Below, piece after piece: positions 2-32,180 of a stretch of 64,000 nt of DNA (its first letter is position 1; the number at the start of each line of letters is the position of its first letter). The position numbers and the translations under genes were made by a program. The stretch covers positions 67,239 to 131,238 of the forward strand of contig SVUK01000006.1 in assembly GCA_015063325.1 (NCBI GenBank), written 5' to 3'. This DNA is from Oscillospiraceae bacterium. Its GTDB lineage: Bacteria > Bacillota > Clostridia > Oscillospirales > CAG-272. Below the pieces are notes generated by a model that saw nothing but the letters and a program-made list of their open reading frames with translations, did not search any database and was not told the DNA's origin.

Positions 2-1234
2 GTGTTCGCCGATAAAATTCTGCACAAGGGGGAGCAGATCGGCTCTTGCTTCCAACTGAATTTCATTCAGCAGAAAAGTAAGCGTATCGACTTTTTGCAA
101 GAGGTCGATCAGTTCTTCTTTCCAAAGTTCAATTTCCTTTTTCTTTTCCGGATCTTCCAATCCGCCTCTGCGAATGGAACGTCGGATTAAACGGGTGTAA
201 CCGATAATCCGCGCCTTGTCTTCCACTGCGCGAATTGTTTGCTCGTCGGTTGTTCCAAGGTAAGCGGAAAGCGTTTTTTTCCAAAAAACGGTTGCGGTTT
301 CAAAATCGAATCCCTGGAATTTGATGATGTTCTTATGATTGTATTCAGAAAAACCGATATACGCATTGAACATACTGCCCAACTCAAAAATCGGGTGTCC
401 GACCGCAAGGGTATCCATGTCGATAATCAGCACTTCATCGCCTTGCAATTCCAAATTTTTGGTGTGATAGTCGCCGTGAATCATTGTATCGGTATGGGGA
501 ACTGTCTGCACCAATTTCACCAGCTTTTCGCCGAGATCAGCCGGTAGATAATCGCGCACGAATTTTGCCCAGTCAAGCGCGGTTTCTTTCATATCGGGCA
601 GTTTTCCTGCCGGAACGTTGGTTCCGTGTATTTTTTTGAGCATTTTTACGTATTCATCAACGCACCAGTCCATTTTATCCGGCTCGGTGGAGAGAATTTT
701 AGAGAAAGAGCGCGCGTTTAGCAGTTCAAAAACAGAGCCATAACTTTCGCCTACTTTAACAACGTCGTAGGAAATTGCAGTTGGAATTCCGAGAATCAAA
801 GCCAACTTGGCAACCTCGCGCTCATGTTGAATATCCGAAAGCGCGTCGGCGTTGTTGTAGACCTTTACCACGTTATCCTTATCAATGCGGTAAATAGTTC
901 CGTTTGCACCGCGACCGATTTCCTCGCACCCCTCCACCGAAACGGTACGGTATGCTTTTTCCACCGGCATCATTTCGGTAAAGCCTGTCATTTCCAAAAT
1001 GTCGTAAACGTCCGCGTTGACCTCTGTAATGCACAGAGACGGGTATGATTTTTTGACGCGCAAAATGACACGCAGACCGGCGCTGGAGATGTACTCCAGT
1101 TTTTTGGCATTCAGAACAATGCTGACGGAACGGTCTTCCGGCAGTTTTGCAACAATCTCCTGCTCCACTTGGGCTGCGTTGCCCGAATCAATTCTTCCGC
1201 AAAGTTCAATCGTCATTTTTTCTTCGTTTTGCAT
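2..1234 (-). CDS. STAS (anti-sigma-antagonist-like) domain fused to an APH/choline-kinase-fold phosphotransferase domain. The 3' end runs off the window, and the gene is absent from the supplied ORF track because it is open-ended.
   Basis: Hand translation of the minus strand. ATG at 1234-1232 is preceded by GGAGA. N-terminus reads MQNEEKMTIELCGRIDSGNAAQVEQEI...KKLEYISSAGLRVILRV (STAS, Ser50/51). It continues with GRGANGTIYRI, HGDYHTKN (res 253-260) and IIDMD (270-274), which match a kinase catalytic loop and metal-binding Asp. No stop codon down to position 2. Confidence 0.8.
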   Translation of the reverse strand, partial: MQNEEKMTIELCGRIDSGNAAQVEQEIVAKLPEDRSVSIVLNAKKLEYISSAGLRVILRVKKSYPSLCITEVNADVYDILEMTGFTEMMPVEKAYRTVSVEGCEEIGRGANGTIYRIDKDNVVKVYNNADALSDIQHEREVAKLALILGIPTAISYDVVKVGESYGSVFELLNARSFSKILSTEPDKMDWCVDEYVKMLKKIHGTNVPAGKLPDMKETALDWAKFVRDYLPADLGEKLVKLVQTVPHTDTMIHGDYHTKNLELQGDEVLIIDMDTLAVGHPIFELGSMFNAYIGFSEYNHKNIIKFQGFDFETATVFWKKTLSAYLGTTDEQTIRAVEDKARIIGYTRLIRRSIRRGGLEDPEKKKEIELWKEELIDLLQKVDTLTFLLNEIQLEARADLLPLVQNFIGEH

Positions 1235-1310
1235 AGCAATTCTCCATTTTTTGGATTTATATCTATTCTATCATATTTTTTTTGATTTTTCAACTTTTTC
1301 TGCTAAATTA

Positions 1311-1339: not shown

Positions 1340-1383
1340 GTGTAGGCTGCCTTAATTATTTGCTTCAAAAAAAGGAGGAAGAC

Positions 1384-4300
1384 ATGAAAAAAAGAAAACA
1401 GCGTGCGTCCATCGAGCGCATTTGTCCCGACTTTCAAAAGGGACTGACGCAGGAGCAGGTCAACGAGCGCGTTCAAAAAGGGTACACCAACGTTGCCGAC
1501 GATCCCAACGAGAAGGGACCGCTGAAGATTGTTGCCGGCAACCTGTTCACCTTTTTCAACGTGGTTTTGTTTTCCATTGCTCTGTTGTTTATCGTTTTTA
1601 TCATCTACCTGAAGGCGTCCGGGCATTCGGAAATTGCCGATAAGTATTTCGGGTTTACCAAGTTCGTATTCCTGATCCCGGCAATTATGAACGTTGGAAT
1701 GGGGACGTTTCAGGAGATCAAAAGTTTAAAAGTTATTAAAAAACTTCGTATTGTTACCGAATCCAAGGCAAAAGTTGTTCGCAACGGGGAAACGATCCGG
1801 ATCGACGCCAGCGGAATTGTGCTGGACGACATCGTTTCGGTTTCCGCAGGCGATCAGGCCTCCGCCGACCTGACGGTGCTGGACGGCGAAGTATTCGTGG
1901 ACGAATCCATGCTGACCGGTGAAGCAGACCATGTGAAAAAATGCGTCGGTGATCAGATTCTTTCCGGTTCTTCCATTATTGTTGGTTCGGCGCATTGCCG
2001 CGCCGTTGCCGTTGGTAACGATACATATGCCGCCGAATTGACCAAGAAGGTCAAGAGCGGTACGCGCCACAAATCCGAGCTGATGACTTCCATTATGAAG
2101 ATCATCAAAATCCTGACCGTTGGGTTGTGCATTGCGCAAATCACCGTACTGACGACCATGGCAATCAAAATTGTTGCCACCGGCGCCGATGCCGCAATTT
2201 GGGGCGAGCTTGCACCGTTGGATTTGAAAAATCCCGTATCGTGGGCGATTTTGGCGGTTACGGGCGGAACCTACGGAATCGGTATGATTCCTACCGGCTT
2301 GGTGCTGACGGCGTCGGTTACCATGATGGTTTCGATTGCACAGCTGACCAAAAAGCAAACGCTGATTCAAGAGCTGTATTCTTTGGAAAACCTTTCCCGT
2401 GTGGACGTGATTTGTCTGGATAAAACCGGAACGCTGACCGACGGTACCATGACAGTTGCCGATGTGAAGGCCTTCGTTCCCATGGAGGAGGTGGAGCGCC
2501 ACGCACGCGCGCTGATGGCGTCCCAGGGCGAACGCAACGCCACCGCCGAGGCGATTTACCAGCGGTTTGGTATTGACGAGAACGCTTCCTATAAAGAAAA
2601 GATTCCGTTTAACAGCGCGGTCAAGTATTCCGGCTTGGTTTATAACGACGGCAAGCGCCTTTTGATGGGTGCGCCGGAATATCTGCTTTCCAAGGACGAC
2701 GAGCGGCTCTCCTTTGCCGCCGATTGCGCCAAGGAAGGCAAGCGCGTGATCGCCCTGACGTTGGATGGCGAGCTGGTTGCCTTTTTCGTTATTGAAGACC
2801 ATATCCGCGATACCGCGCCGGATACCCTGAAATTCTTCCGTGAAAACGGCGTTACCGTGAAAGTCATTTCGGGTGATAACCCCCTTACCGTTTCCAAAAT
2901 TGCCGAGCAGTGCGGCATTAAGTTTGCAGATCGTTACATCTCGCTGGAGGGTGTTCCGCTGGAACAAATTCCCGAAATTTGCGAGGACTACACCGTATTC
3001 GCCCGTGTAACACCCGAGCAGAAGGAAGCGCTTGTTACTGCGTTGCAGGCGAAAGGACACAAGGTTGCCATGACCGGTGATGGTGTAAACGATATTCTTG
3101 CGCTTCGCAAATCGGATAGCTCCATTACCTTTGCAAAGGCGACCGAAGCGGCAAAATCCTGCTCCGATGTTGTTTTGCTGGATAATGATTTTTCTCACCT
3201 CAAAGAGGTGGTCGGCGAAGGTCGCCGCGTTATCAGCAACATTCAAAAAACCGCTGTTCTGTATTTGATGAAATCGATTGCAGTTTTCATCTTTGCCTTT
3301 GCGCTGATCCCGTTTGCAAGAGGGCAGATGAACCTTACGGTGGAAAACTTGTATATGCTGGAGGCCGCTGTCATCGGTACGGGCGGATTCCTGCTCTCGC
3401 TGGAGCCGATCCGCAAACCGATCGTTGGCTCGTTTATGAAGAATATTCTGACGCAGGCGGTTGCCGCAGGCGTTCTGGTTTCGGTCGGTATTTTGTTGCC
3501 GCTGTTGCTCTACGCTGTTCCGCAGGCACTCGGCGCGGCGCCGATCATCAGTGAAACGAGCGTTCGCACGATGATGACGATCCTCGTCAGCCTTGCAGGT
3601 TTTGTCGTTCTGTTTTCCATGTGCCTGCCGTTCAACAAATATCGTGCCATCACCGTTACGGCGTTGGTTGCCGTTGCCGCCATTCTCGGCTTTATGCTGC
3701 CGGCTTCCTATATCGGCGGTCAGACCATCGGCGTTGATATGGTGAAATTTGACGCCGCGGCAGGGCAAACCATTTTTGATTCCCAGCTGATGCACGAAAT
3801 GTTCCAGCCTTGGAACTCCGCCGCTGTCAAGGACCTGTTTTCGGATCAGGAGAACTTCGTCATTCTGCGGTTGTTCCTCTACGTTGCTGTTCCCGTCTTC
3901 ATTTTGATCCGCTTTGCCATTGAGAATGCCAACAGAAGAAATTACGGCAAAGACGTCAAAAAGAACCGTTCCTTCCGCATTGGCAGAAGATTGACGCTTG
4001 CCTCCGGTTTTGTGCTGATCCTGCACGCCGTCCTTTCGGCGGTGGAATTGACCTCCGCTTCTATGGCGGTTCCGATCAGTGCACGCTACCATATCGGCGA
4101 GGGCGTTTCTCTTGCTATCAACATTGCTTTCGTCGTCCTTCATCTTGCAATCGGTTATATCGGTTACAAGGTTTGGAAGGACCCGACCAAAAAGATGCTC
4201 CGCATCGCGTTCGGTGCGGCGATCGTTCTGTTGGTTATCACGATTGTCAGCATGGTCCTTTCCGGACAGATCATTACCAGAACGAACGACGTTTTAATGA

Positions 4301-4407
4301 TCATCGACAGTGTGCTGGTTTTGATTGCTTCGGCTGCGTATATCACCGGAGCTTCCATCATTCGTGCCCAGTACAATCTCGGACTTCTTAAACCGAGAGA
4401 CGCTTGA
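1384..4407 (+). CDS. Cation-translocating P-type ATPase of an atypical clade, with a C-terminal membrane extension (1007 aa)
   Basis: DKTGTLT phosphorylation motif and TGDGVNDILAL hinge. TGEA replaces TGES, and M4 reads IPTGL instead of PEGL. About 170 extra C-terminal residues form about 4 hydrophobic segments. Start at ATG 1384 after AAAGGAGGA; the track start at 1360 is an upstream TTG. Confidence 0.85.
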   Translation: MKKRKQRASIERICPDFQKGLTQEQVNERVQKGYTNVADDPNEKGPLKIVAGNLFTFFNVVLFSIALLFIVFIIYLKASGHSEIADKYFGFTKFVFLIPAIMNVGMGTFQEIKSLKVIKKLRIVTESKAKVVRNGETIRIDASGIVLDDIVSVSAGDQASADLTVLDGEVFVDESMLTGEADHVKKCVGDQILSGSSIIVGSAHCRAVAVGNDTYAAELTKKVKSGTRHKSELMTSIMKIIKILTVGLCIAQITVLTTMAIKIVATGADAAIWGELAPLDLKNPVSWAILAVTGGTYGIGMIPTGLVLTASVTMMVSIAQLTKKQTLIQELYSLENLSRVDVICLDKTGTLTDGTMTVADVKAFVPMEEVERHARALMASQGERNATAEAIYQRFGIDENASYKEKIPFNSAVKYSGLVYNDGKRLLMGAPEYLLSKDDERLSFAADCAKEGKRVIALTLDGELVAFFVIEDHIRDTAPDTLKFFRENGVTVKVISGDNPLTVSKIAEQCGIKFADRYISLEGVPLEQIPEICEDYTVFARVTPEQKEALVTALQAKGHKVAMTGDGVNDILALRKSDSSITFAKATEAAKSCSDVVLLDNDFSHLKEVVGEGRRVISNIQKTAVLYLMKSIAVFIFAFALIPFARGQMNLTVENLYMLEAAVIGTGGFLLSLEPIRKPIVGSFMKNILTQAVAAGVLVSVGILLPLLLYAVPQALGAAPIISETSVRTMMTILVSLAGFVVLFSMCLPFNKYRAITVTALVAVAAILGFMLPASYIGGQTIGVDMVKFDAAAGQTIFDSQLMHEMFQPWNSAAVKDLFSDQENFVILRLFLYVAVPVFILIRFAIENANRRNYGKDVKKNRSFRIGRRLTLASGFVLILHAVLSAVELTSASMAVPISARYHIGEGVSLAINIAFVVLHLAIGYIGYKVWKDPTKKMLRIAFGAAIVLLVITIVSMVLSGQIITRTNDVLMIIDSVLVLIASAAYITGASIIRAQYNLGLLKPRDA

Positions 4408-4474: not shown

Positions 4475-5938
4475 TTATTGCTTTCCTTTATATTCTAAGC
4501 AGAGCATGGTCAAATCGTCAAATTGCTCGGCATCTTTTACAAATGCGTCAACCGAAGAACGCAAATGGTTCAGGGTGTCTGCAGGTGACGCTTCACAGTT
4601 TTGATTGAGCGCGGCGAGCATACGGTCGGCGCCGAACAATTCGTTTTGCGCGTTGGTTGCTTCGGGGACCCCATCGGTATACAGGAGAAGCTTTGCGCCC
4701 GGTTCCAGCCGGAGCTCGTATTCTTTATATTTGACGCCGTCCATTCCGCCAATCACAAATCCGTGCTTATCCTTTACAAGCTCAAAGTTTCCGTTTGCCT
4801 GCTTGAGAACGGGGTATTCGTGCCCTGCGTTTGCGGCTGTCAGTTTTCCGGTAGAGATTTCCAAAATGCCGATCCAAACGGTAACAAACATTTCCTCGCG
4901 GTTGTTCGAGCAAATGGCGGCGTTGGTATCGGTCAGAATTTGCGCCGGGGATTTTCCCATCATGGCGTTGTTTGCCAAAATGATTTTGGAAGCCATCATA
5001 AAGAGTGCGGCGGGAACGCCCTTGCCCGAAACGTCGGCCATCACCATGCAAAGGTGATCGTCGTCAACGAGAAAGAAGTCGTAAAAGTCGCCGCCAACTT
5101 CTTTGGCAGGATTCATGGAAGCAAAAATGTCAAATTCCGATCTTTCGGGGAAGGGTGGGAAGATGTTCGGCAGCATACTGGACTGAATGCTGGACGCCAT
5201 GTTGAGTTCGTTTTCAATTCGGGAAGTTTCCAACTGTTGTTTTGCGTATTTGTCGTTTTGATTTTGAATAATGACCGAGAACATGTAAACCGATGACAGA
5301 ACGGTTGCAAAAATAAGAAATTGGAACTTACCCTTTCCCAGCGTTTGAAGAATAATTGCCGGAATCGGGGATATTAAATAGATCCAAAATGCCGAATTGA
5401 CGCGCTTGTCAATCTTTTTGCGACCCATAAACAGCAGAACAGCATCGGTAATCAACATGTTGACCGGGCAAACGTAGGAAAGGAAAATCAGTTTGCCGGC
5501 AACATACCGGTTTTCATCATTAAATTGATAAATCAAACCGTTCGGCGCGCAAGCGATTAAAATAACAATGTGTATGAAGAGAAATGCATATAAAAGAATT
5601 GCCGCTCGAATGGTTGCTTTCTTTTTCAGCTGCGCAACGGCAAGAACAAGAATCGACATCGTATGCGCCATAAATCCGGCGGAAAGAAATTCCGCAAACG
5701 TGATGATATAAAGCGCAATACGTGCGCCCTCGCCGGCGCGTCCGTTCAAAAGCTCCCGGGCAAGATGCGTGGAAATATAGAAAAGAATCAAAAGAAAGAA
5801 AAACTGAAAGTAACGCCGCACCTCTTTGCGCAAATGCACGGAGGAGGTGATGTGCATAAAGCAAAGACTGCAAATGCCGATACCGCCGGCAGTGAACAAC
5901 GCGTTTACAAGATGCGCCGATAGAATGAAATCTACCAT
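4475..5938 (-). CDS. Polytopic membrane protein with a C-terminal SpoIIE/RsbU-type PP2C serine phosphatase domain
   Basis: About 230 aa with about 7 hydrophobic helices, followed by the PP2C hallmarks GGDFYDFF, MADVSGKGVPAALFM, GHEYP and LYTDGVPEA. SD AGAGG lies upstream of the ATG at 5938. Confidence 0.9.
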   Translation of the reverse strand: MVDFILSAHLVNALFTAGGIGICSLCFMHITSSVHLRKEVRRYFQFFFLLILFYISTHLARELLNGRAGEGARIALYIITFAEFLSAGFMAHTMSILVLAVAQLKKKATIRAAILLYAFLFIHIVILIACAPNGLIYQFNDENRYVAGKLIFLSYVCPVNMLITDAVLLFMGRKKIDKRVNSAFWIYLISPIPAIILQTLGKGKFQFLIFATVLSSVYMFSVIIQNQNDKYAKQQLETSRIENELNMASSIQSSMLPNIFPPFPERSEFDIFASMNPAKEVGGDFYDFFLVDDDHLCMVMADVSGKGVPAALFMMASKIILANNAMMGKSPAQILTDTNAAICSNNREEMFVTVWIGILEISTGKLTAANAGHEYPVLKQANGNFELVKDKHGFVIGGMDGVKYKEYELRLEPGAKLLLYTDGVPEATNAQNELFGADRMLAALNQNCEASPADTLNHLRSSVDAFVKDAEQFDDLTMLCLEYKGKQ

Positions 5939-5974: not shown

Positions 5975-6280
5975 TTATTCAATTGTAAGAATATCCGAAA
6001 ATCCGGTCACTTCAAAAATCTCCATGACGGTTGCGTTGACATGGCAAACCGTCATCTTGCCCTGTCCGTTCATCACTTTTTGGGCGGAGAGCAGAACGCG
6101 CAGTCCTGCCGAGGAGATGTATTCCAGTTTTTCAAAATCCAAAGCAAGTTCTTCCAGCCCGGGAAGAATGGATTGAATCTCTTTTTCCAAATCCGGTGCG
6201 GTCAGCGTATCCAAACGGCCTTCCGCAAAAAGAATTGCCTTTTTTCCTTCGATTGTCTTGTTAATGTTCAGCATGGTCAT
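5975..6280 (-). CDS. Single-domain STAS protein (anti-sigma-factor-antagonist family), 101 aa
   Basis: MTMLNINKTIEGKKAILFAEGRLDTLTAPDLEKEI...FEKLEYISSAGLRVLLSAQ...MEIFEVTGF. The phosphorylatable Ser position is conserved (Ser56/57). GGAGAAA SD lies before the ATG at 6280. The track start at 6442 would overlap the upstream permease gene. Confidence 0.85.
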   Translation of the reverse strand: MTMLNINKTIEGKKAILFAEGRLDTLTAPDLEKEIQSILPGLEELALDFEKLEYISSAGLRVLLSAQKVMNGQGKMTVCHVNATVMEIFEVTGFSDILTIE

Positions 6281-6342: not shown

Positions 6343-9255
6343 TTATGCTACATCGGTCAAACGCAGGTTTTTCACCTTTCGCAAAGCGATTGCATTCACG
6401 ATTATGGTAAAGAGAACGGTGATTGCCGCGGCAATACCCCAAGCCAAAATGTCGGGACTGCGTTTGAGCTGCAGGAAGGATTGCTCCAGCGTTCGGACAA
6501 TGCTATAACCGGCGCCTGCGCCTGCGGCAATGCCAAGCAGAATGCCCAAAATGGTTGTGAGCACCGTTTCGCGCAGGATATACCCGATTACCTCTTTTAC
6601 GGTAAAGCCGTTGATGCGCATAACGGTCATTTCCCGTTTCTTTTGCAGGACGTACATATTGGTCAGATTGAGCTGTACCACACCAGCCATGACGCCGGCA
6701 ATAAAGATGAACAAGATCGTTACGATGGTGAGCATGGACATGGAGGTTTCAATCACCGATTTACTCGAATCGGCGTCAAAACTGGATTCAAATCCTTCCA
6801 GCCCACGGAGTTCTTCGCTCAATTTTTCACCGTCCGCTCCATTCAAGCGGATCATGTATGCATTTGCTGTGAAGGGAGTTCCGTACGCTTTTTCATAGTA
6901 GGTGCTGCTCATTGCAAAAGAGCGCCCGATATAACTTTCAAAAATTCCGGCAACACGAACGGTTGCAATGTTCGTTCCGCCCAGCGCAAGATCAAATTCA
7001 CTGCCAACCGAAAGATGACAGGTTTCGGCAATTCTGCGCGGAATCAGAATCCCCCGGTCGGTCGGACGAATGGGTTCTCCGGTTTTCCAGTCATATAAGT
7101 GGTAGTATTTTCCAATCTCTTCAAGATCACCGCAAAGCAGATCGGCAACCTGCAGATCGTCAATCCGGTAGGTTACGGTTGCATTGTAAATCTTTGCCGA
7201 TTCCGCATTTGCGCGGATGATCGCGTCTTGGTAATCGTTGCCGTCGTTTGCGGCGGTTTGGGGATCGTAGCTTACAAGATAGTCGTATTCAATGATTTCG
7301 CCGTACTGCTTATCAACCGAACCGGTCACCGCTGATTTCAGCGTCAGCCCGATGATGACCAATGCACAGCAACCGGCAACGCTGACGATGGTAACCATGA
7401 CGCGCTTGAGGTCGGTGCGCATATTCAAAAGGATCAAACGAGAATAAAGGGAGAGAACGCGTTTGCCTTTCCGTTTTCCAAACGTTTTTTTCTTAACGCC
7501 GGGAGCTTTCGGCTGCATCAGGCTGACGGCGGGCTCGCGCAACAGTTTGCTACAGGCAAACCAAACGGCAAGGACCGCCAAAAGGATTCCAAAGCAGAAA
7601 ACGATTGCCGTTGACCCGGCGACGAAACAGGGCTTGGAAACATCAAAATTATAATAATTGTTAAATCCGTTCAGCAAAAACGGTGCAATGGCGAATCGCG
7701 CTGTCAGAATTCCAAGAAGAATACCGATAGCGGTTGCCGAAACGCCGAAAAAGAGATATTTCGCAAAAATTTCACGGGTGAAAAAGCCGAGCGCTTTGGT
7801 TGTGCCAACCATACCGCGCTGTTCGTCCACCATTTTCCCAACGGTTGCGAAAATGACCAGTGCGCCAACCAAAACGAATAGCAGGGAGAAGGTCATTTTT
7901 AAGTTTGAGAAGTTTGAGCTTCCCACAATCAGTTGTGCGAAACTTGCATTGCCTTTTCCGTCAAACGAGATCCAACGGCAAGGGCGCAGTTCCGCCATTT
8001 TTTGCTTGTAGATTTCCAGCCCTTCGAGGTATTGCACGTGTCCTTCATCCCATTGGTTGCAACCGTCCGAAAGTTCCTGAAAATCTTTCGTATATCCAGC
8101 CGCATAGGTGACGAGCGCATCCCGAACGGCAACCATGTCGTAATCTCCCGTTTCGGTTTTCGGAGCGTCGACTTTTTGCGTGTATTCGTAAACGGCGACC
8201 AACAGTTTTTCCGAAATACTTTCCGAGGAAAGGATTGCTTGAATGATATCTTTTGGCGAGCGACTCAAATCAACGCGAAGATTTTGGGTGATCCAAAGAT
8301 ATTTTGCTGTTTCGTTGGGGTCATCGACATTTGCTTCCTTTTCGGTTGCCCAATGAAACAGTTTATGTTCTTCCGATTGCCTAAAAACGGTTTCAACGAT
8401 ATTTTTCAGCTGATTCCGAATCATTGCTTTAGCGGATTCCAGTTTGTCAAAACCTTCTTCCAGCTGCGCTTTGGAATCGTTGAGTTTCTGTTGCGCGCTC
8501 TCGGTTACTGCTTTATCCCGTTTTGCGGCTGCAGAAACGGCAAGCTCATCGATTTGCTCCTGAACGGCGGCAACCAAGTTTTCATATTTTTCGGAGAAAC
8601 GGTCAATGTTTTCCGGCTTTTCGATGGTGATTTCCGCTTTCATAAAGCAACCTTCCAACGCTTCGTCATCAAAAACGTCCCACATTGTAAGTACGTAGGG
8701 AGCTTCCTGAACGATATTGTTGGAATGATCGGGATGGTTGACAATACCGGTGACAGTGAATTCGGTTTTTTGAAGATAATTCACCTTTTGTCCGGCGGAG
8801 TCGACCAGGGAGATCTTGTCACCCACTTTTATACCGATTTTTTTAGCAAGCGTTTCTTCAAGAACGCATTCGTCAATCGCGGTCGGTAGTCGTCCGTCAT
8901 GGAGTTCAACCCGGTTGATGCGTTGCGTCAGCGAGACAACGCTGATACTTTCACTCGCATTTTGATAGTTGACAACCGCGGATACGGAGCGCACGGTTTC
9001 CACATCGGTTACGCCATTGATTTTCTTCAAATCCTGTACGTCTTCTTCGGAGAACAGCAAGGTGGAAATAATTTCAATATCCCGGAAATTAACGCGGTTG
9101 TAAATATCCGATCCATTCCGGCGCAAACCGGTTGCCGTATAATCAATGCCTAAAAAGGTGGTAACGCCGATCATGGCGATAATGATGATGGAGAGAAACG
9201 AAACTTTTTGTTTCCAAACGTTTCGCAAACAATCTTTTCGTTGTGTCTTTTTCAT
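6343..9255 (-). CDS. ABC transporter permease of MacB/FtsX type, with two FtsX 4-TM modules and a large extracytoplasmic domain (970 aa)
   Basis: N-terminal TM helix, then an extracytoplasmic region of about 430 aa that includes a coiled-coil-like stretch (AAKRDKAVTESAQQKLNDSKAQLEEGFDKLESAKAMIRNQL). FtsX-like TM blocks lie around res 470-590 and 850-970. The start lies 6 nt after the stop of the upstream ATPase gene. Confidence 0.85.
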   Translation of the reverse strand: MKKTQRKDCLRNVWKQKVSFLSIIIIAMIGVTTFLGIDYTATGLRRNGSDIYNRVNFRDIEIISTLLFSEEDVQDLKKINGVTDVETVRSVSAVVNYQNASESISVVSLTQRINRVELHDGRLPTAIDECVLEETLAKKIGIKVGDKISLVDSAGQKVNYLQKTEFTVTGIVNHPDHSNNIVQEAPYVLTMWDVFDDEALEGCFMKAEITIEKPENIDRFSEKYENLVAAVQEQIDELAVSAAAKRDKAVTESAQQKLNDSKAQLEEGFDKLESAKAMIRNQLKNIVETVFRQSEEHKLFHWATEKEANVDDPNETAKYLWITQNLRVDLSRSPKDIIQAILSSESISEKLLVAVYEYTQKVDAPKTETGDYDMVAVRDALVTYAAGYTKDFQELSDGCNQWDEGHVQYLEGLEIYKQKMAELRPCRWISFDGKGNASFAQLIVGSSNFSNLKMTFSLLFVLVGALVIFATVGKMVDEQRGMVGTTKALGFFTREIFAKYLFFGVSATAIGILLGILTARFAIAPFLLNGFNNYYNFDVSKPCFVAGSTAIVFCFGILLAVLAVWFACSKLLREPAVSLMQPKAPGVKKKTFGKRKGKRVLSLYSRLILLNMRTDLKRVMVTIVSVAGCCALVIIGLTLKSAVTGSVDKQYGEIIEYDYLVSYDPQTAANDGNDYQDAIIRANAESAKIYNATVTYRIDDLQVADLLCGDLEEIGKYYHLYDWKTGEPIRPTDRGILIPRRIAETCHLSVGSEFDLALGGTNIATVRVAGIFESYIGRSFAMSSTYYEKAYGTPFTANAYMIRLNGADGEKLSEELRGLEGFESSFDADSSKSVIETSMSMLTIVTILFIFIAGVMAGVVQLNLTNMYVLQKKREMTVMRINGFTVKEVIGYILRETVLTTILGILLGIAAGAGAGYSIVRTLEQSFLQLKRSPDILAWGIAAAITVLFTIIVNAIALRKVKNLRLTDVA

Positions 9256-9261
9256 ATCGCG

Positions 9262-10482
9262 TCACCAAACCAGCTCTTCGGCGTGAACGGGGTGCATATT
9301 TTTCTTGATGCTGGCAATTTTTCCGTTCCGAACCTTGACAACTCGGTCTGCCATTTTCGCAATTTCCGGGTTGTGCGTAACCATCATGACCGTGGTACCG
9401 TTGTTGCGGACGATCTCTTCAATGACTTTCAAAACCTCAATACTTGTGGTGTAGTCGAGCGCCGCAGTCGGTTCGTCGGCAAGGATCAGTTTGGGATTTT
9501 TTACAATGGCGCGCGCAATGGAAACGCGTTGCTGTTGTCCGCCGGACATTTGCCCGGGATAGTTACCTGCTCGCGATTTTAATCCGACTTTATCCAACGC
9601 TTCTTCCGGGGACATGGGGTTGTCGACGAGCTCGGCAATAAATTGTACGTTTTCCAGAGCGGTCAAGTTGGGCATTAAGTTGTAGGATTGGAAGATAAAT
9701 CCAACGTACTTTCTGCGGAAAGCAGTCAATTCTTTGTCGGTGGGGCGCGAAAAATCCTTCCCCTCGATCAAAAGCGTGCCTTCCGTTAAAAAGTCCATAC
9801 CTCCGATGATGTTCATCATGGTGGATTTTCCGCAACCGGATTCTCCCAGTACCACAACGAATTCATTCTTGTAAACTTCCAAATTGATTCCTTTGAGAAC
9901 GCGAGAAACGCCGTCGCCGGAAGGGAACTCTTTGACCACGTCTTTCAGGACAGCAAGAACTTCCTTTTTCTCGCCAAGATCAACCAGCAGTCCCTTTTCG
10001 TCAATGGTAATGGCGGCAAGGGAAGCCATACGTTCGCAGAGTTGAAGCTCTTCTTCATCGTAGGAGCTTTTGTCGGTTTTGTTGACGATTTGGACGCAGC
10101 CGATCACCTCGTGCAGATTGTTCAGCGGCACGCAGATCATGGTCTTCGTTGTCAGACCGTTGTCGTCGAAAACAGAACCGTCAAAACGCGGATCGTTGAG
10201 TGCGTCGGCAATGATGATCGATTTTCCGGTTTTGGTAACAACACCTTCCACGCCCAGTCCGTTCTCAACGGTAATATTGGAAATATCCGCCGGTCCGATA
10301 TGGAACAGGGGGCTGAGACGATCGGTCTTTTTGTCCAAAATCCAAATCGCTCCGGCAGCGCTTTTCAATGTTTTTACAATAATTTCCAAACTTCCGGAAA
10401 GGGCGTCTTCCAGGTTATCCACCTCCAAAAGCTGTTCCATAATTTTCCAGGTCGCTTGTGCAAATCGTTTTTCTTCCGGCAT
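9262..10482 (-). CDS. GAF domain fused to a MacB/LolD-type ABC ATP-binding domain (406 aa)
   Basis: Res about 15-160 look GAF-like ([10 protein letters not shown]...[24 protein letters not shown]...ICVPL...[10 protein letters not shown]). Walker A is GESGCGKST (213-221), the signature is [14 protein letters not shown], and Walker B is [17 protein letters not shown] lies before the ATG at 10482. Confidence 0.9.
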
Positions 10483-10917: not shown

Positions 10918-11010
10918 GGAGAGGTGGCTGAGCTGGTCTAAGGCGCACGACTGGAAATCGTGTGTTCGGCTAATAACCGACCGCGAGTTCGAATCTCGCC
11001 CTCTCCGCCA
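10918..11010 (+). tRNA. tRNA-Ser (anticodon GGA) with a long variable arm and encoded CCA
   Basis: Acceptor GGAGAGG/CCTCTCC. Anticodon stem CACGA/TCGTG with loop CTGGAAA. Variable arm TCGG-CTAATAA-CCGA. T-arm GCGAG-TTCGAAT-CTCGC. Discriminator G followed by CCA. Confidence 0.95.
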
Positions 11011-11011
11011 T

Positions 11012-11054
11012 GAAAGAAACCGCTTTTGTCCGGTAGACAAAAGCGGTTTCTTTC
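11012..11054 (+). terminator. Long perfect hairpin directly after the tRNA (terminator-like)
   Basis: GAAAGAAACCGCTTTTGTC-cggta-GACAAAAGCGGTTTCTTTC: 19-bp stem. The downstream T-tract is weak. Confidence 0.6.
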
Positions 11055-11055
11055 A

Positions 11056-11227
11056 GTTATATTCGCCTGCGGCGAGTGATATTGGGCTTTGCCCAGTTAT
11101 ATTCGCTTCGCGAGTGATATTGCGCTTCGCGCAGTTTAGAGGCGAATATAATATAACTTCTCGCGTCAGCGAGAAATATAACGGTCCCGAAGGGACAATA
11201 TCACTGCGCCGCAGGCGCAATATCACT
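11056..11227. repeat. Ordered array of eight G(T/G)(T/G)ATATT 8-mers (4 forward, 4 inverted), each followed by a GC-rich mini-hairpin
   Basis: Forward copies: GTTATATT 11056, GTGATATT 11076, GTTATATT 11096, GTGATATT 11114. Inverted copies: ATATAAC 11151, AATATAAC 11175, AATATCAC 11197, AATATCAC 11219. Spacing is 18-25 bp. The spacers are mini-palindromes (TCGCCtgcGGCGA, GGGCtttGCCC, TCGCttcGCGA, GCGCttcGCGC, TTCTCGCgtcaGCGAGAA, GTCCCgaaGGGAC, TGCGCCgcaGGCGCA). Confidence 0.8.
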
Positions 11228-11312: not shown

Positions 11313-11774
11313 ATGGAACGAGCGGAAATAACTGCATTGTTTGACAAATACATCAAAAAGCTCCGAATCACACCGGGATGGGATGTTCGGTTAGAATTGG
11401 TTGAAGATCCCTCATGGCGAAAGACCGGCGATTTCAAGATTGATTGTGACGACAGAAAAGCGATCCTGATGCTGAACGTCGTGAACCCAACGCAGGAAAA
11501 CATGGAGGAGGTCATTGTCCATGAGTTGATGCATATCAAAATGTATCCGCTGGATCAGGTCACGGAATCGCTCATTACGAACTGCTTTGAAGAAGGTAGT
11601 GTGGCGAGCAACTTTGCTTATCAGCAGTTTTTCACCGCCCTTGAGCAGACTGTGGAGGAATTGGCAAAATGTTTTCTATATGAATTTGGTGAAGACAAAG
11701 AGTTATCCTATGGCAGATGTCGTAAGGGTAAATCATTCAACGACCTCTATGAGGGTTTGAACAGCATAGACTGA
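11313..11774 (+). CDS. Small HExxH-motif protein (putative minimal zinc metallopeptidase, family not recognised), 153 aa
   Basis: EEVIVHELMHIKMYPLD contains HExxH. GGAGA SD lies 9 nt before the ATG at 11313; the track start at 11289 is an upstream GTG inside the SD. I could not assign a family by eye. Confidence 0.65.
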   Translation: MERAEITALFDKYIKKLRITPGWDVRLELVEDPSWRKTGDFKIDCDDRKAILMLNVVNPTQENMEEVIVHELMHIKMYPLDQVTESLITNCFEEGSVASNFAYQQFFTALEQTVEELAKCFLYEFGEDKELSYGRCRKGKSFNDLYEGLNSID

Positions 11775-11807
11775 CTGACAAATTCAAATTTGTCGGGATG
11801 ACAAGCG

Positions 11808-11863
11808 TGTATCATTATGGCGCTTTTAATAAGGTTTACGTATCATTATGGCGCTCTTTCACA
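11808..11863 (+). repeat. Left copy of a 56-bp direct repeat, itself containing 2 copies of the 16-mer GTATCATTATGGCGCT
   Basis: tgtatcattatggcgcttttaataaggtttacgtatcattatggcgctctttcaca. 51/56 identical to 13373-13428. Internal 16-mers at 11809 and 11840 (31-bp period). Confidence 0.9.
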
Positions 11864-12140
11864 TAAAAGAAACGTCTTTTGTCTACCACGATAAAAGGCG
11901 TTTCTTTTCGCATTTTGGGCAAAAATCGGGCCAATATAGGCAAAACGGGCTTTCAGACGGTTGATCAGCCGCCCGGAAGCTCGATTTTTTCGTTTCAGGA
12001 CGCGGAAACGGTCAAAAAATGCTGTACTGCCCGCCACCGATTTGTCGAGGAACGCTTCTACAACGCACCAATCAACCGTTCGTTGAAAAAATCTACCGTT
12101 TTTCAACAGCGCGGTTATTGTATTGCGGCAGGAGAAGTGT

Positions 12141-12168
12141 TATAATAAACGCAGAACAAGCGCTTGTT
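12141..12168 (+). promoter_or_regulatory. Extended -10 element plus a perfect 14-bp palindrome (candidate operator) upstream of the HTH gene
   Basis: TGTTATAAT (-10 at 12141-12146), followed by AACAAGCGCTTGTT (12155-12168). This lies between the -10 and the ATG at 12194. Confidence 0.5.
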
Positions 12169-12193
12169 ACTTTCATTTTCGAGGGAGAAAACT

Positions 12194-13264
12194 ATGAACA
12201 TTTTATTGAGTGTGCAATTAAAAAAACTCCGCAAGGAAAGAGGCAATACGCAGGAGGATCTTGCGAACTATCTCGGCATTTCCACGCAGGCAGTTTCCAA
12301 ATGGGAGCGTGATGAAGGATACCCGGATATCACGCTCCTCCCGGCGATCGCGTCCTATTACAACATCAGTGTGGACGATCTACTCGGCGTGGGTGAAATC
12401 GAGAAAGAGAAAAAGTTGCTTGCATACCGTGAAAAAAACAATGAACTGTTCCGTGACGGAAAAAACTCAGATCGGGTGGCGCTATGGAGAGAAGCCCAAA
12501 AGGAGTTCCCGAACGATCTGTCCGTGCTTTACGATCTGATGTACGCTTTGTCCGCGGCGGATCAAAACGCAAACGCTGACGAGATCATTGCTTGCGGAGA
12601 GAGGATATTAGATGAATCCACGGATCAATCTTTGCGCGGCGGCGCGATCCAATGCTTATGCTACACCTATTACTATGCCAAAAAGGATGCGGAGTCGGCA
12701 AAGAAATACGCAAATATGGCGGACGGTTATTCGGTCACGGTCGATGAAATGATGCCGTGCATTCTGGAAGGAGAGGAAGCGGTCCGATATTGTCAGTTCA
12801 ACATACAACATCTTTTTGATATGGTCGGATTGAACGTGCGTATCATGTGTCAAAAGGGCGATTATTCGCCGGAGGAGCATATCAAAGCGCGCGAATTTCT
12901 TATTCATTGCTTCGATCTGCTTTATTCGGACGGAAACTGCGGTTTTTATCACTGCCGATATTCGGAGATCTATCAGGAAATGGCGGCAAACTTTTTAAAG
13001 CTTAACGACGCGGCAAATATGTTTGAGTATCTTGAAAAATCTGCTGAGCACGCGATCAGGTATGATACGCTGAAGGATGGACAGTTCACTTCTTTCTTCG
13101 TAAATCGGATCGACTTTTCTTCCATACATACGGTCAAGGATTATACTGAAAATCAATCGGGGTTGCTTTTGAAATCCTTGAAAGGAGAGAAGTTCAAACA
13201 GTTTGAAAAGGATCTCCGCATGGCGAAGATCGTTAATATGCTGACACCCGTGGCGATTTTCTGA
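12194..13264 (+). CDS. XRE-family HTH regulator with a long helical-repeat (TPR-like) C-terminal domain; RNPP-like architecture, 356 aa
   Basis: N-terminus [65 protein letters not shown] is a classic Cro/C1 HTH. The remaining about 290 aa are helical-repeat-like. GAGGGAGAA SD lies before the ATG at 12194. Confidence 0.85.
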
Positions 13265-13467: not shown

Positions 13468-16179
13468 TTAATACCCGTTTTTTTTGCCTCGTGCGCGCCA
13501 AAGCAGTTTGCGAATGAAATCCGCCGGGAAGACCGAGAGCGAGAATAGCATGGTCAAACCCAGTTCGCGCGGTAACAACGGCGCCGTTCGCAAAACATTT
13601 CCGCCAAGATAAACAAACACAATCTGCAAGATCAATACTGCGAGCATGATGACGATGAAAACCGGATTTTTATGTAATCCGGCAAACAGTTTGATGCGGT
13701 CGGTGCGCGCGTTGAAACAGTTAAACACCGAGCAGAAGATAAAGAAAGCGAAAAACGCCGTTAACAGGTAGATGTTGTCGGGCGCATAGCGGAAAAGGGA
13801 AGTGACGAGCGGATTTTTTAGGAACAGCAAAGAGATTGCAACGGTAAAACCGCTTAACCAGGCAATTTGATTGACCATATATCGGTTCAAAATTCCTTCT
13901 TCCCGTTTCTTTGGCGGTTCTTTCATATAGTCGGCGCGCGGAGGCTCTCCGGCAAAGGCGAGTCCGCCCAACGTATCCATAATCAAATTGATCCAAAGCA
14001 TTTGCACCACCGTGACCGGGGAATCAATTCCGAGGAAGGGGCAAATCATGGTAACACCCACTGCCGAAAAGTTCATGGTCAATTGCAGAGTAATGAATTT
14101 GCGAATGCTTTTAAAAATTGTTCTTCCGTAAAGCACCGCTCGAACGATGGAGGCAAGATTGTTATCTAAGATAATAATATCGCCGGCATCCTTTGCCACC
14201 TGTGTTCCCGATCCCATAGCAAACCCAATGTCGGCGCGGCGCAAGGCCGGCGCGTCGTTGATCCCGTCACCGGTCATTCCGGTTACCAAACCGGCTTCCT
14301 GCGCCACGCGAACCAATCGGCTTTTATCGGTCGGAAGTGCTCGGGCAACCACTGCAAGACGCGGCAAAAGCTCGCGCAGGCGGACATCGGAAAGGTGCGA
14401 AAGCTCGGTGCTATCAAGAATCAGGTCATTTTTTTTGTTCAAGATGCCGCATGAGGACGCAATCGAGCCGGCGGTTTCGCGGTTGTCACCGGTAATCATC
14501 ACAACGTGAACACCTGCCTGCTGCAAAGACCGAACCGAGGATGCCGCCTCAATCCGGACTGGGTCGGAAAGGCGCAAAAGGCAGAGCAGGGTGAGGGAAC
14601 CGCGAATCCCCGAGGCGTGAGAGGGAGCCGGAGTATCCTCGTCGGAAATGGCAACGGCAAGAACACGTGCGCCGCTCTTTGTCCATTGATCCGCCTGCCG
14701 TTGTGCGGCATTTTTCTGGAAAGGGATTCGTTTTCCGTCAATTGTCATGGCGGCGTGCACAAAGGAGAGAATTTTTTCCGGCGCTCCGGTTAAAAAGGTT
14801 ATGTTCTGTTTGCCGCGATAGGTCACGGCAGCGTATTTGCGAGCACTGTCAAACGGGAGCCTTGATTTTACGACCGTATTCGGCGGCGCTTTTTCGCCCA
14901 AAACCGAGAGCAGCAAAGCGCGGTCGGTCGCGTTTCCGCCGAGCGGAACGGGAAGCCCTTTTTCATCGGTACCAATCGTACTTTCTCCGCCGCGCATGGC
15001 GAGCAAAAAGGGAAGATAGGCGCCCGTACGCCGATCGAGAAAAGTCATGGGCGGCATGGCTTCTCCGGGAGAAAACCAGATTTCACCCACACGCATTTTT
15101 CCTTCGGTCAGTGTTCCGGTTTTGTCGGTAAACAATAGATTCATGCTTCCTGCCGCTTCAATTCCCACCGGCCGACGAACGAGTACCTGATCCTTCACCA
15201 TACGCCGGATATTGGAGGAAAGTACCACGGCAACCATCATCGGCAGTCCTTCTGGAACAGCGGTAACTACCACCGTTAAGCCGAGTGTGAATGCGTGGAA
15301 GAGCTTGGAAAGAAGGTAGGGGGTGTCGGTAATCTTCATTAGAATAATTTCGCGGCGCATACCGCTGTCGATCAAAAAAACGTGGAAAAGATATGCCAGC
15401 GCAACCAGAACGGCGGCAATATAACCGAGTACGCTGATTTGACGGGCAAGTTTTGCAAGACGGAGTTTGAGAGGACTGTCGCGCTGCTCCAGCTGAACTT
15501 CTTTCGTGATTTCGCCGAGGAAGGTTTGGTCCCCCACCGAGAGAACGCCCATCTCTCCGCCGCCAGAGGTTACCGTCGATCCGCGAAATAGCGCGGAGGG
15601 GGAGTCAGGAAGAAGTTTTTCGCCGCGAACGGGAAACTTCGGAACGTCGTGACTTTCCCCGGTCATGGAGGATTGGTCGGCAGTCAGATTGCCGCGCAAA
15701 AGGAATCCGTCCGCAGGAATCAATTCACCCTGGGAAAGGAGAACGATATCTCCAACAACAATTTCGCCAAGCGGTATTTCCGAAACAACACCCGAGCGGC
15801 GTACGCGGCAACGTACGTTTGCGGTTTCTGCCGAAAGACGGGCAAACGCACGCTCCGAAGAGCGCTCGGAGAGGGTGGAAATCAGCGTTGCCAAAAAAAC
15901 GGCGGCGGCAATTCCGGCTGTTTCCACCCAGTCTGCCGTTTTGAAAAGTAAAATCAAGTTGACGGCAAGCGCGGCAAGAAGAATGCGGATGACGGGATCG
16001 GAGAGGTTTCCGAAGAACTGCCGTAAAAAGGATTTTTGGGGGCGGCGGGAAAGCAGATTGTCTCCGTGCTTTTCACGGGATACAAGAACCTCGCGCGCCG
16101 AAAGTCCGCTGTCGGCAAAATCGGAGGCGGAGCGAGGATCGGTTTTTGGTATGGTCGAATTCAAAGTAGCGTCCTCCAA
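13468..16179 (-). CDS. Calcium-translocating P-type ATPase (type IIA/IIB-like)
   Basis: TGES (SMTGESHDV), PEGLP in M4 (TAVPEGLPMMV), DKTGTLT, and TGDGINDAPALRRADIGFAMG. The true start is probably the TTG at 16164, 7 nt after GGAGG; the track start at 16179 lies inside the SD. Confidence 0.9.
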   Translation of the reverse strand: MEDATLNSTIPKTDPRSASDFADSGLSAREVLVSREKHGDNLLSRRPQKSFLRQFFGNLSDPVIRILLAALAVNLILLFKTADWVETAGIAAAVFLATLISTLSERSSERAFARLSAETANVRCRVRRSGVVSEIPLGEIVVGDIVLLSQGELIPADGFLLRGNLTADQSSMTGESHDVPKFPVRGEKLLPDSPSALFRGSTVTSGGGEMGVLSVGDQTFLGEITKEVQLEQRDSPLKLRLAKLARQISVLGYIAAVLVALAYLFHVFLIDSGMRREIILMKITDTPYLLSKLFHAFTLGLTVVVTAVPEGLPMMVAVVLSSNIRRMVKDQVLVRRPVGIEAAGSMNLLFTDKTGTLTEGKMRVGEIWFSPGEAMPPMTFLDRRTGAYLPFLLAMRGGESTIGTDEKGLPVPLGGNATDRALLLSVLGEKAPPNTVVKSRLPFDSARKYAAVTYRGKQNITFLTGAPEKILSFVHAAMTIDGKRIPFQKNAAQRQADQWTKSGARVLAVAISDEDTPAPSHASGIRGSLTLLCLLRLSDPVRIEAASSVRSLQQAGVHVVMITGDNRETAGSIASSCGILNKKNDLILDSTELSHLSDVRLRELLPRLAVVARALPTDKSRLVRVAQEAGLVTGMTGDGINDAPALRRADIGFAMGSGTQVAKDAGDIIILDNNLASIVRAVLYGRTIFKSIRKFITLQLTMNFSAVGVTMICPFLGIDSPVTVVQMLWINLIMDTLGGLAFAGEPPRADYMKEPPKKREEGILNRYMVNQIAWLSGFTVAISLLFLKNPLVTSLFRYAPDNIYLLTAFFAFFIFCSVFNCFNARTDRIKLFAGLHKNPVFIVIMLAVLILQIVFVYLGGNVLRTAPLLPRELGLTMLFSLSVFPADFIRKLLWRARGKKNGY

Positions 16180-29005: not shown

Positions 29006-29029
29006 GAAAAACAGAATAGTAAGTTCAAA

Positions 29030-29246
29030 ATTCTTTGGGGAATGGTGAAATTCCATACCGGCAGTATAGTCTGCGAACGGAGGTTCGGTATAATCGAACC
29101 GACGCCGATCGGGTGCAACTCCCGAACCGACGGTAACGGCAACTTCCACAAAACGGGAAATGCCTGAAAGTCCGGATGAGAAAAGAAAGAACAAACGACC
29201 GTAGTTTGCGCCCCGGGGTAGTTTTATGCCACGGGATTTTTCTTTT
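29030..29246 (+). promoter_or_regulatory. FMN riboswitch (RFN element) with a putative terminator expression platform
   Basis: TTCTTTGGGGAATGGTGAAATTCCATACCGGCAGTATAGTCTGCGA...GGGTGCAACTCCCGAACCGACGGTAA...AAAGTCCGGATGAGAAAAGAA matches the RFN core. P1 pairs 29031-29036 with 29182-29187. An imperfect stem (29212-29235) is followed by ATTTTTCTTTT. Confidence 0.85.
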
Positions 29247-32060: not shown

Positions 32061-32180
32061 TTCTTATCAAGAGTAACGGAGTGACCGGCACGATGATGTT
32101 ACAGCAACCTGCCCACGCGGTAAGGTGCTAAATCCGAGGAGATGAGAGCAAAAAGGCTCCGTCTGCGGAGCCTTTTTTAT
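32061..32180 (+). promoter_or_regulatory. SAM-I riboswitch (S-box) with an intrinsic terminator
   Basis: TTCTTATCAAGAGTAACGGAGTGACCGGCACGATGA...GCAACC...AAGGTGCTAAATCCGAGGAGATGAGAG, followed by AAAAAGGCTCCGtctgCGGAGCCTTTTTT (32150-32178). Confidence 0.9.

Follow-up and report, generated by a model that had tools for sequence, protein, structure and literature searches.

A candidate partner switch that joins an APH-fold kinase to STAS and GHKL domains in rumen and gut Clostridia

The stretch analysed here, called the window in the following, comprises 64,000 nucleotides from an Oscillospiraceae bacterium (contig SVUK01000006.1, positions 67,239 to 131,238) and begins inside a gene whose product joins a STAS domain, an APH/choline-kinase-fold domain and a GHKL kinase domain. 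Genes for a free-standing STAS protein and for a membrane PP2C phosphatase lie nearby, and together these genes form a candidate partner-switching module. The open reading frame (ORF) at the window edge exists, as an initial annotation that left the strand unstated had said: in the minus-strand frame an ATG at 1234–1232 begins a run of 411 codons without a stop up to the edge, and a plus-strand reading of positions 2–1234 was rejected for its many stops. A protein search retrieved a full-length protein of 523 amino acids (aa) (P0001) that is 100 % identical to the window ORF, and a 205-kb contig from a metagenome assembly (L001), which is identical to the window across the 9,000 bases compared, carries the intact gene and supplies the missing 3' end.

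The recovered part of the gene adds a HATPase_c_2 domain (PF13581) at aa 395–521, with an E-value of 9.2e-23 and 81.1 bits (cut-off 27.4). According to the initial annotation there was no GHKL gene in the window, and a circuit built on a non-GHKL kinase fold was proposed on this premise. Hidden Markov models (HMMs) built from relatives indeed detected no complete GHKL gene, and no PHP or HD_4 gene, elsewhere in the window. However, the fusion gene itself encodes a HATPase_c_2 domain, the first 17 residues of which still lie inside the window, and the premise is an artefact because the window edge truncates the gene within its GHKL domain. The proposed circuit is not supported, since the C terminus of the fusion is an RsbW-like GHKL domain whose N-box, G1 and G2 motifs are intact, and relatives of the fusion carry GHKL in several forms. 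Architecture read at a window edge can thus invert an interpretation, the 'missing' GHKL domain being the cut-off tail of the same gene. All three Pfam domains, STAS, APH and HATPase_c_2, were found in nearly all of the best 120 protein matches. Upstream of the gene, a promoter scan returned a site that matches the consensus at 10 of 12 positions (2 sites were seen when 0.7 were expected), and a GGAG sits 7 nucleotides 5' of the ATG; judged by these matches, the fusion gene likely has its own promoter. The features are collected in Table 1.

Table 1. Genes, domains and signals of the window and of the contig with the intact fusion gene. Positions refer to the window unless contig L001 is named; AF2, AlphaFold2; RBS, ribosome-binding site.
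Feature	Coordinates	Strand	Basis or remark
Fusion gene for STAS, APH-fold kinase and GHKL kinase domains; codons 1–411 of 523	2..1234	minus	Translation; 3' end past window position 1
STAS domain of fusion, aa 7–93; predicted acceptor Ser51, codon at 1082–1084	956..1216	minus	Pfam STAS, E 2.3e-11
APH/choline-kinase-fold domain of fusion, aa 103 to ~390; D255 codon 470–472	65..928	minus	Pfam APH, AF2, Foldseek
First 17 residues (aa 395–411) of RsbW/SpoIIAB-type GHKL domain	2..52	minus	Full domain aa 395–521
Candidate promoter (TTGAAA-17-TAGAAT, upstream TG, 1293→1265) and RBS (GGAG, 1245→1242) of fusion gene	1242..1293	minus	Consensus matches only
Intact fusion gene	10001–11572 on L001		
Membrane PP2C (SpoIIE-family), 487 aa; presumed STAS-P phosphatase	4475..5938	minus	Pfam SpoIIE, E 2.4e-49
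Free-standing STAS protein, 101 aa; predicted acceptor Ser57	5975..6280	minus	Pfam STAS, E 1.3e-12
P-type cation ATPase, 1015 aa from listed TTG start	1360–4407	plus	Between PP2C and fusion, divergent from fusion
GAF–ABC ATPase fusion (406 aa) and FtsX/MacB-type permease (970 aa)	6343–10482	minus	Directly upstream of free STAS
tRNA	10918–11007	plus	With Gut-1 RNA within 10918–11125
Second P-type ATPase-like ORF	13468–16179	minus	
FMN riboswitch	29027–29191	plus	86 bits
SAM-I riboswitch	32061–32148	plus	70 bits
Two large secreted-type phosphodiesterase/sulfatase-superfamily proteins	12544–16817 on L001		Beyond window edge

The N-terminal STAS domain that had been recognised in the fusion was confirmed by Pfam with 43.8 bits (cut-off 22.6), and the NCBIfam model TIGR00377 for anti-sigma factor antagonists matched it with 56.2 bits and an E-value of 2.6e-15 (cut-off 53.45). 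Its Ser51 aligns with Ser58 of SpoIIAA, the Ser after the Asp in the 'DSSGLG' loop (1auz, 1th8); S50 and S51 are invariant across 81 fusion orthologues, and S51 is kept in 120 of 120 distant relatives. Similarly, the free STAS protein, which was found as described before, has an SSAGLR loop that is invariant in 63 orthologues, and gave in addition a weak NCBIfam match to MlaB (E 0.0054). The serine pairs had been numbered correctly as S50/S51 in the fusion and S56/S57 in the free protein. The two STAS domains have an identical block in common, as the initial annotation had pointed out, together with the differing serine codons (TCC AGC versus TCC TCG), but the block, KLEYISSAGLRV, is 12 residues long and not 11. 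Only 28 of its 36 nucleotides are identical, the two STAS domains are 41 % identical overall and they belong to separate orthologous groups, so that a recent duplication of DNA was rejected as the origin of the block, in agreement with the earlier reading. The pattern L-x-Y-x-S-S-A-G-L-R is invariant, or nearly so, in the 81 fusion orthologues, the 63 free-STAS orthologues and the 120 distant relatives; because the loop is so constant throughout the family, the identity of 12 residues does not indicate a special kinship of the two proteins. The block is the conserved, family-wide loop of the predicted phospho-acceptor.

The middle domain matches the APH family (PF01636) at aa 103–291 with an E-value of 1.4e-14 and 54.9 bits (cut-off 23.2). 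By contrast, the corresponding check for a Hanks-type Pkinase domain returned no Pfam match at E ≤ 0.01 for the window ORF or for the full-length protein. The catalytic set is complete, with a Gly loop at 107–112, K124, E138, H253-G-D255-x4-N260 and D272-M-D274, and the motifs GRGANGTIYRI, HGDYHTKN and IIDMD occupy exactly the positions given in the initial annotation (107–117, 253–260 and 270–274, respectively). G107, G109, G112, K124, H253, D255, N260, D272 and D274 are invariant in the 81 orthologues, and K124, H253, D255, N260 and D272 are conserved along with S51 in the 120 distant representatives. An AlphaFold2 (AF2) model of aa 94–392 built from a deeper alignment reached a pLDDT of 93.2 and, in combination with Foldseek, displays a bilobal fold with a C-terminal helical substrate subdomain. 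The best fold matches in the PDB were capreomycin (Cph001), aminoglycoside 2''/3'/4, choline-family (3dxq) and methylthioribose kinases, all with a Foldseek probability of 1.00, TM-scores of 0.45–0.60 and identities of 11–17 %, and a PDB sequence search with this domain gave no meaningful match. The nearest named family, TIGR02172, scored 108.4 bits, which is below its cut-off of 228.2 and excludes membership by the NCBI rule. Weak NCBIfam matches were obtained for the CotS/CotI spore-coat kinases, Bud32 and the PRK11768 serine/threonine protein kinase model. Judged by the modelled fold, the domain is probably a small-molecule kinase that stands at some distance from all solved members and has no close characterised homologue. 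An AF2 model of the full-length protein from 24 close homologues reached a pLDDT of 73, and this model says nothing on contacts or packing of the domains because the N-lobe of the APH-fold domain (aa 95–176) is poorly modelled (<50). The C-terminal helical subdomain contains a basic helix, YTRLIRRSIRR, at aa 346–356 of the full-length protein (window ~167–199, minus strand), which is strongly conserved: close homologues share R348, R351, R352, R355 and R356 without exception, and homologues with 50–59 % identity still have three of these arginines. The pockets of aminoglycoside kinases are acidic. A basic patch, should this helix line the active site, would suit an anionic substrate or a phospho-Ser.

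The C-terminal domain of the fusion matches NCBIfam RsbW with an E-value of 2.4e-8 and 33.5 bits, below the equivalog cut-off of 145, and the RsbW structure 6m36 with an E-value of 2.3e-5 in an alignment that runs through the N-box, G1 and G2 motifs. By these scores it is related to RsbW and is not RsbW itself. The residues E430-E431…N435, D467-x-G469 and G492-G-L-G495 are invariant in the 24-sequence full-length alignment and highly conserved in the 81 orthologues. With catalytic and acceptor residues intact, all three domains of the fusion look active. Among relatives, GHKL domains occur in other arrangements than the C-terminal fusion seen in the window gene: in HATPase_c_2–STAS–APH proteins (P0125) the domain is fused N-terminally, at two loci (L066, L074) it is split off as the next ORF directly downstream, at two others (L089, L140) it is a separate gene of 141–146 aa, and at four (L086, L088, L091, L111) it is part of the PP2C protein of the operon. 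GHKL, STAS–APH and phosphohydrolase are linked by fusions and fissions that happened repeatedly and independently.

The PP2C protein was also found as described in the initial annotation; about 6–7 hydrophobic segments lie within its aa 1–226, and aa 292–483 form the catalytic domain. In order to see which genes accompany the fusion, 80 loci were collected from species-representative genomes of other species, all of them uncultured rumen and gut Bacillota (Oscillospiraceae, Ruminococcaceae, Lachnospiraceae, Erysipelotrichaceae, Anaerovoracaceae and Mogibacterium). Orthologues of the free STAS were present at 58, of the PP2C at 39 and of a PHP-domain protein at 55 of the 80 loci, almost always on the same strand, and the usual orders were STAS–fusion–PHP and STAS–PP2C–fusion–PHP. 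On contig L001, a gene for a PHP-domain protein of 287 aa (11591–12454) begins 19 bp after the fusion gene, outside the window. The conserved unit consists of the fusion, the free STAS, the membrane PP2C and a TrpH/YciV-type PHP protein immediately downstream. A functional connection of the fusion with the free STAS and PP2C had been suggested from the window, and 66 of the 80 loci have at least one of the two beside the fusion; the opposite prospect, that the fusion is never found near STAS or PP2C genes in other genomes, is contradicted by the same counts. Among the recurrent neighbours at these loci there was no sigma-factor gene in a longest-ORF census, and one encoded elsewhere is possible; this census was contaminated by spurious antisense ORFs and was used qualitatively only. 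Long tblastn spans had suggested insertions inside the fusion gene, a candidate explanation that was rejected, the extra length being the adjacent free STAS gene. At 7 of the 80 loci (for example L067, 11592–12191) a conserved protein of about 200 aa that has no Pfam match follows the fusion gene and replaces or precedes PHP. Membership in a known anti-phage defence system was rejected, since the fusion, a two-domain relative, the free STAS, PP2C, PHP and HD_4 all remained without a match to the models of PADLOC-DB 2.0.

A further 80 loci came from a metagenome scan, and their neighbours were called with HMMs iterated on the collected loci. The partner census covered loci flanked by at least 2.5 kb on either side and counted partners within 4 kb. 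At 57 loci with the three-domain fusion, a free STAS was found in 79 %, PP2C in 53 % and PHP in 77 %. Relatives that consist of STAS and APH domains only (28 loci) were accompanied by a free STAS in 43 %, PP2C in 21 %, a separate GHKL in 39 % and an HD_4 protein in 43 %, and had no partner in 21 %. Counts within 4 kb and beyond 5 kb on the same contigs were 103 and 0 for STAS, 58 and 2 for PP2C (a 20-fold enrichment near the fusion), 34 and 4 for GHKL, 71 and 3 for PHP and 30 and 0 for HD_4, a contrast that is somewhat inflated because the HMMs were trained on the loci they counted.

A profile search showed the family to be large, with at least 8,000 candidates, all at E ≤ 1e-5; of the clusters formed at 50 % identity, 822 score below E 1e-30. 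STAS–APH is its ancient and widespread core, and the family is found characteristically among Clostridia of rumen and gut, most of them uncultured. Rarer architectures include HATPase_c_2–STAS–APH, STAS–APH–PHP (P0126), HD-CE–STAS–APH, Na/H exchanger–STAS–APH, STAS–APH with a PolyA_pol head and STAS–APH–YezG-like. Operons of two-domain relatives repeatedly contain the parts of a switch. At L140 (6639–9149), STAS, HATPase_c_2, HD_4 (7400–7966) and STAS–APH genes form a tightly packed operon that was verified with Pfam; L089 has HATPase_c_2, HD_4 and STAS–APH, L091 has STAS, SpoIIE–HATPase_c_2, a weak HD_4 and STAS–APH, and L088 has a 5TM-LYT–SpoIIE–HATPase_c_2 protein and, farther on, HD_4, STAS–APH and STAS. 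The order at L086 is STAS, STAS–HAD, SpoIIE–HATPase_c_2 and STAS–APH, and at L084 no partner was found within 7 kb. The STAS–HAD protein of L086 (3784–4866; 360 aa, Hydrolase_3/S6PP) is a second STAS–enzyme fusion in that operon, under a single kinase/phosphatase, and, by its predicted domains, shows STAS as a regulatory module on enzymes. At L150 (6674–11700), STAS, HATPase_c_2, HD_4 and STAS–APH are followed about 1.2 kb later by a second set of STAS, HATPase_c_2 and HD_4, as if the switch genes had been duplicated in tandem. Thousands of family entries are named in databases only as 'anti-sigma factor antagonist', 'STAS domain-containing protein', 'phosphotransferase' or 'ATP-binding protein'. 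In the searchable literature, queries for STAS with APH, for TIGR02172 and for STAS with alarmone hydrolase retrieved no paper that describes the STAS–APH architecture; one retrieved candidate (PMC11109978) was discarded, as it concerns an unrelated STAS-associated RNA motif.

The kinase is constantly accompanied by a member of one or the other of two unrelated hydrolase families, PHP and HD_4, and is sometimes fused to PHP. Matches of the PHP protein are to the TrpH/YciV branch, with likeness in the PDB to 3e0f, 2yb1 and the 5'-3' exoribonuclease 7ug9, and gave NCBIfam matches to 3',5'-nucleoside bisphosphate phosphatase and RNase RNM that both remain below cut-off. For the HD_4 protein, the matches were Lmo0812, Rel hydrolase domains, MESH1 and a (p)ppApp hydrolase. 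Known PHP members (pAp phosphatase/RNase AM) and HD_4 members remove phosphates at the ribose 3' (or 2') position of nucleotides. Because the alternating companions resemble 3'-phosphohydrolases, the substrate of the APH-fold domain would most likely be a nucleotide or related ribose hydroxyl. This recurrent pairing suggests a regulated pair of kinase and eraser that can be tested.

Among the other genes near the edge of the window, the P-type ATPase between PP2C and fusion is extended at its C terminus by some 250 aa, which contain additional hydrophobic segments and match Chs7 weakly, and apart from the window only L004, the closest relative, has this insertion within the module. Farther inside the window there is another P-type ATPase-like ORF. 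The fusion of a GAF domain to an ABC ATPase, upstream of the free STAS, is unusual; in other loci the GAF–ABC/FtsX pair is not conserved beside the module, and only low-identity generic ABC matches were found. A tRNA precedes by 47 nucleotides a Gut-1 RNA (RF01706; 60.8 bits, gathering score 50), a member of a functionally uncharacterised family of small RNAs from gut metagenomes. The FMN and SAM-I riboswitches are ordinary and unrelated to the fusion, and before the operons themselves, in the window or in 9 related loci, no riboswitch or other Rfam element that would name a ligand was detected. Beyond the window edge, one of the two secreted-type proteins combines Laminin_G_3 with a lectin domain that is like the receptor-binding part of clostridial neurotoxins, which is a match to a carbohydrate-binding fold and not to a toxin.

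A STAS domain, a GHKL kinase and a PP2C phosphatase that are encoded together and co-conserved constitute a partner-switching gene set. With moderate confidence, we favour a classical phospho-switch of these three domains that controls the APH-fold small-molecule kinase as its output. In such a switch the GHKL domain, and not the APH-fold domain, would phosphorylate Ser51 of the fused STAS and/or Ser57 of the free STAS, and the membrane PP2C would remove the STAS phosphate upon a cue from membrane or envelope. Fused and free STAS would compete for the GHKL domain, and this exchange of partners would set the activity of the APH-fold domain, which would be the output of a conserved module that contains no sigma factor. 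The APH-fold domain would phosphorylate a small molecule, for which a nucleotide or related ribose hydroxyl is the likeliest candidate, and PHP, or HD_4 in the two-domain branch, would erase the product. Several observations weigh against this scheme. Most of the best 150 cluster representatives are STAS–APH proteins of about 390 aa without GHKL, the close relatives L075–L079 and L081–L083 have lost the GHKL domain cleanly, and within 4 kb GHKL is missing from 17 of the 28 two-domain loci, 6 of the 28 having no partner at all. S51 is invariant even in GHKL-less two-domain proteins and, because it is kept where GHKL is absent, there is room for another STAS kinase, including the APH-fold domain. 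Also, the likeness of the fold to small-molecule kinases is moderate (TM ≤0.60, 11–17 % identity), the weakly matching CotS/CotI spore-coat kinases may act on proteins, and the near/far contrast of the census is inflated as stated above. Finally, we infer from the behaviour of the families which kinase domain would act on the serine, and the nucleotide substrate is guilt by association and the weakest step of the scheme.

The absence of GHKL from most of the best 150 representatives and from the surroundings of 17 of the 28 two-domain loci would be explained if the APH-fold domain were itself the serine kinase for the fused or the free STAS, with PP2C as its opponent and GHKL as an accessory binding module or second kinase. 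Such a role would fit STAS–APH as the core of the family, the joint conservation of S51 and the APH catalytic residues in 120 distant relatives and the weak matches to CotS/CotI, Bud32 and PRK11768 models, and there is a precedent for a non-GHKL kinase in the Hanks-type PknD, which is reported to phosphorylate an anti-anti-sigma factor homolog (PMC1847690). However, we consider it improbable, because the same polypeptide contains the canonical STAS kinase in the form of a catalytically intact RsbW-like GHKL domain. In addition, GHKL genes or domains recur with two-domain relatives in five arrangements, the APH fold is nearest to small-molecule kinases and keeps the helical substrate-binding subdomain, and the constant PHP or HD_4 companion would be left unexplained. 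The weak CotS, CotI and Bud32 matches also agree with an APH-fold domain that phosphorylates a third protein, such as a translation or metabolic protein or the neighbouring hydrolase, with PHP or HD_4 as the matching phosphatase or the target and with STAS, GHKL and PP2C still forming the switch. The evidence for the switch itself is then the same as for the scheme we favour, and some PHP-family enzymes (CpsB/YwqE) are protein tyrosine phosphatases. Yet the PHP neighbour matches the nucleotide-directed TrpH/YciV branch and not CpsB, the HD_4 neighbour is alarmone-hydrolase-like, Pfam found no Pkinase match and the best folds are those of small-molecule kinases, so that a third protein target appears just as unlikely.

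The position of the free STAS gene, which directly follows the GAF–ABC ATPase and the 970-aa FtsX/MacB permease on the same strand, raises another arrangement, in which the APH-fold domain would be a sensor of a ligand or of ATP/GTP that tunes the GHKL domain and the free STAS would be the output, acting for example on the GAF–ABC/FtsX transporter in the style of MlaB and MlaF. The STAS protein MlaB is known to regulate an ABC ATPase (PMC7367683), and the free STAS has its weak match to MlaB (E 0.0054). Nevertheless, other loci show no conserved GAF–ABC/FtsX pair beside the module, for which reason the MlaB-like link to the transporter was rejected, and the fusion of hydrolase, STAS and APH (P0126) fits an enzyme pair better than a sensor. 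Catalysis by the APH-fold domain, rather than mere binding, is indicated because every catalytic residue is invariant over wide divergence, and a sensor is the least credible of the readings considered, with very little probability.

Within the favoured scheme of a phospho-switch with an enzyme output, a more specific and rather doubtful idea is that STAS–APH proteins may be 'writers', controlled by PP2C and GHKL, of a new phosphorylated nucleotide signal or of a phosphate at RNA or tRNA 3' ends (ribose 2'/3' hydroxyl), and that PHP and HD_4 may act as the 'erasers'. Clues in this direction are the alternative 3'-phosphoesterase neighbours and the fusions to PHP, to HD-CE and to the nucleotidyltransferase head of PolyA_pol (CCA-adding type). 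If true, this would be a hitherto unrecognised pathway, for a messenger or for the control of growth, that is common in Clostridia of rumen and gut and uses a kinase fold that is not known to act on nucleotides. Partner-switching modules of STAS, GHKL and PP2C proteins are best known as regulators of sigma factors. In the module described here, an enzyme with the aminoglycoside/choline-kinase fold appears to be connected to such a switch by being fused to it covalently, which would extend the reach of partner switching beyond sigma factors, and the family concerned is large, without a description in the searchable literature and common in mostly uncultured rumen and gut Clostridia.

With the APH/choline-kinase-like kinases (PF01636, TIGR02172) the middle domain has in common the bilobal fold, the Gly loop, the Lys, H-x-D-x4-N and the metal-binding Asp, and no solved or described member of that group is fused to STAS or GHKL. 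Pairs of alarmone synthetase and small alarmone hydrolase offer a hypothetical analogy, in that a nucleotide-modifying enzyme stands beside an HD_4 protein (Rel/MESH1/SAH family); in contrast to RSH systems, the proposed 'writer' would be an APH-fold kinase and not an RSH synthetase.

HsbR and SypE are known fusions of PP2C and GHKL, and fusions of this kind adjoin two-domain relatives of the window protein. Outputs other than sigma factors, as proposed for the present module, are found in SiaABCD and HsbR–HsbA of Pseudomonas, SypE–SypA of Vibrio and CapK–CapS. For instance, SiaC activates the diguanylate cyclase SiaD (PMC8457831), and CapK, which resembles anti-sigma kinases, phosphorylates the STAS-like repressor CapS (PMC13373217). 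In contrast to all of these, the output here would be an APH-fold kinase that is covalently fused to STAS, and no such output was found in the literature. A GHKL domain and a STAS domain in one chain, as in the fusion, occur in Rv1364c of Mycobacterium tuberculosis (PAS–PP2C–GHKL–STAS), in which the fused GHKL domain phosphorylates the STAS of the same polypeptide (PMC9138534). Rv1364c, however, regulates SigF and has no enzyme output domain, whereas the window module has a separate membrane PP2C and an APH-fold domain between STAS and GHKL.

In its individual parts the module resembles the RsbV–RsbW–RsbU/P and SpoIIAA–SpoIIAB–SpoIIE systems of Bacillota, with which it agrees in the acceptor Ser loop of STAS, the RsbW-type HATPase_c_2 and the SpoIIE-family PP2C, the membrane anchor of SpoIIE also having a similar counterpart in the window PP2C. 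The module differs from these systems in that it is without a sigma factor, that STAS and GHKL flank an APH-fold kinase in one chain, and that a second, free STAS and a constant PHP or HD_4 phosphohydrolase are added. The gene order rsbV–rsbW–sigB is matched by the STAS, HATPase_c_2, HD_4 and STAS–APH genes of L140, in which enzymes take the position of the sigma factor.

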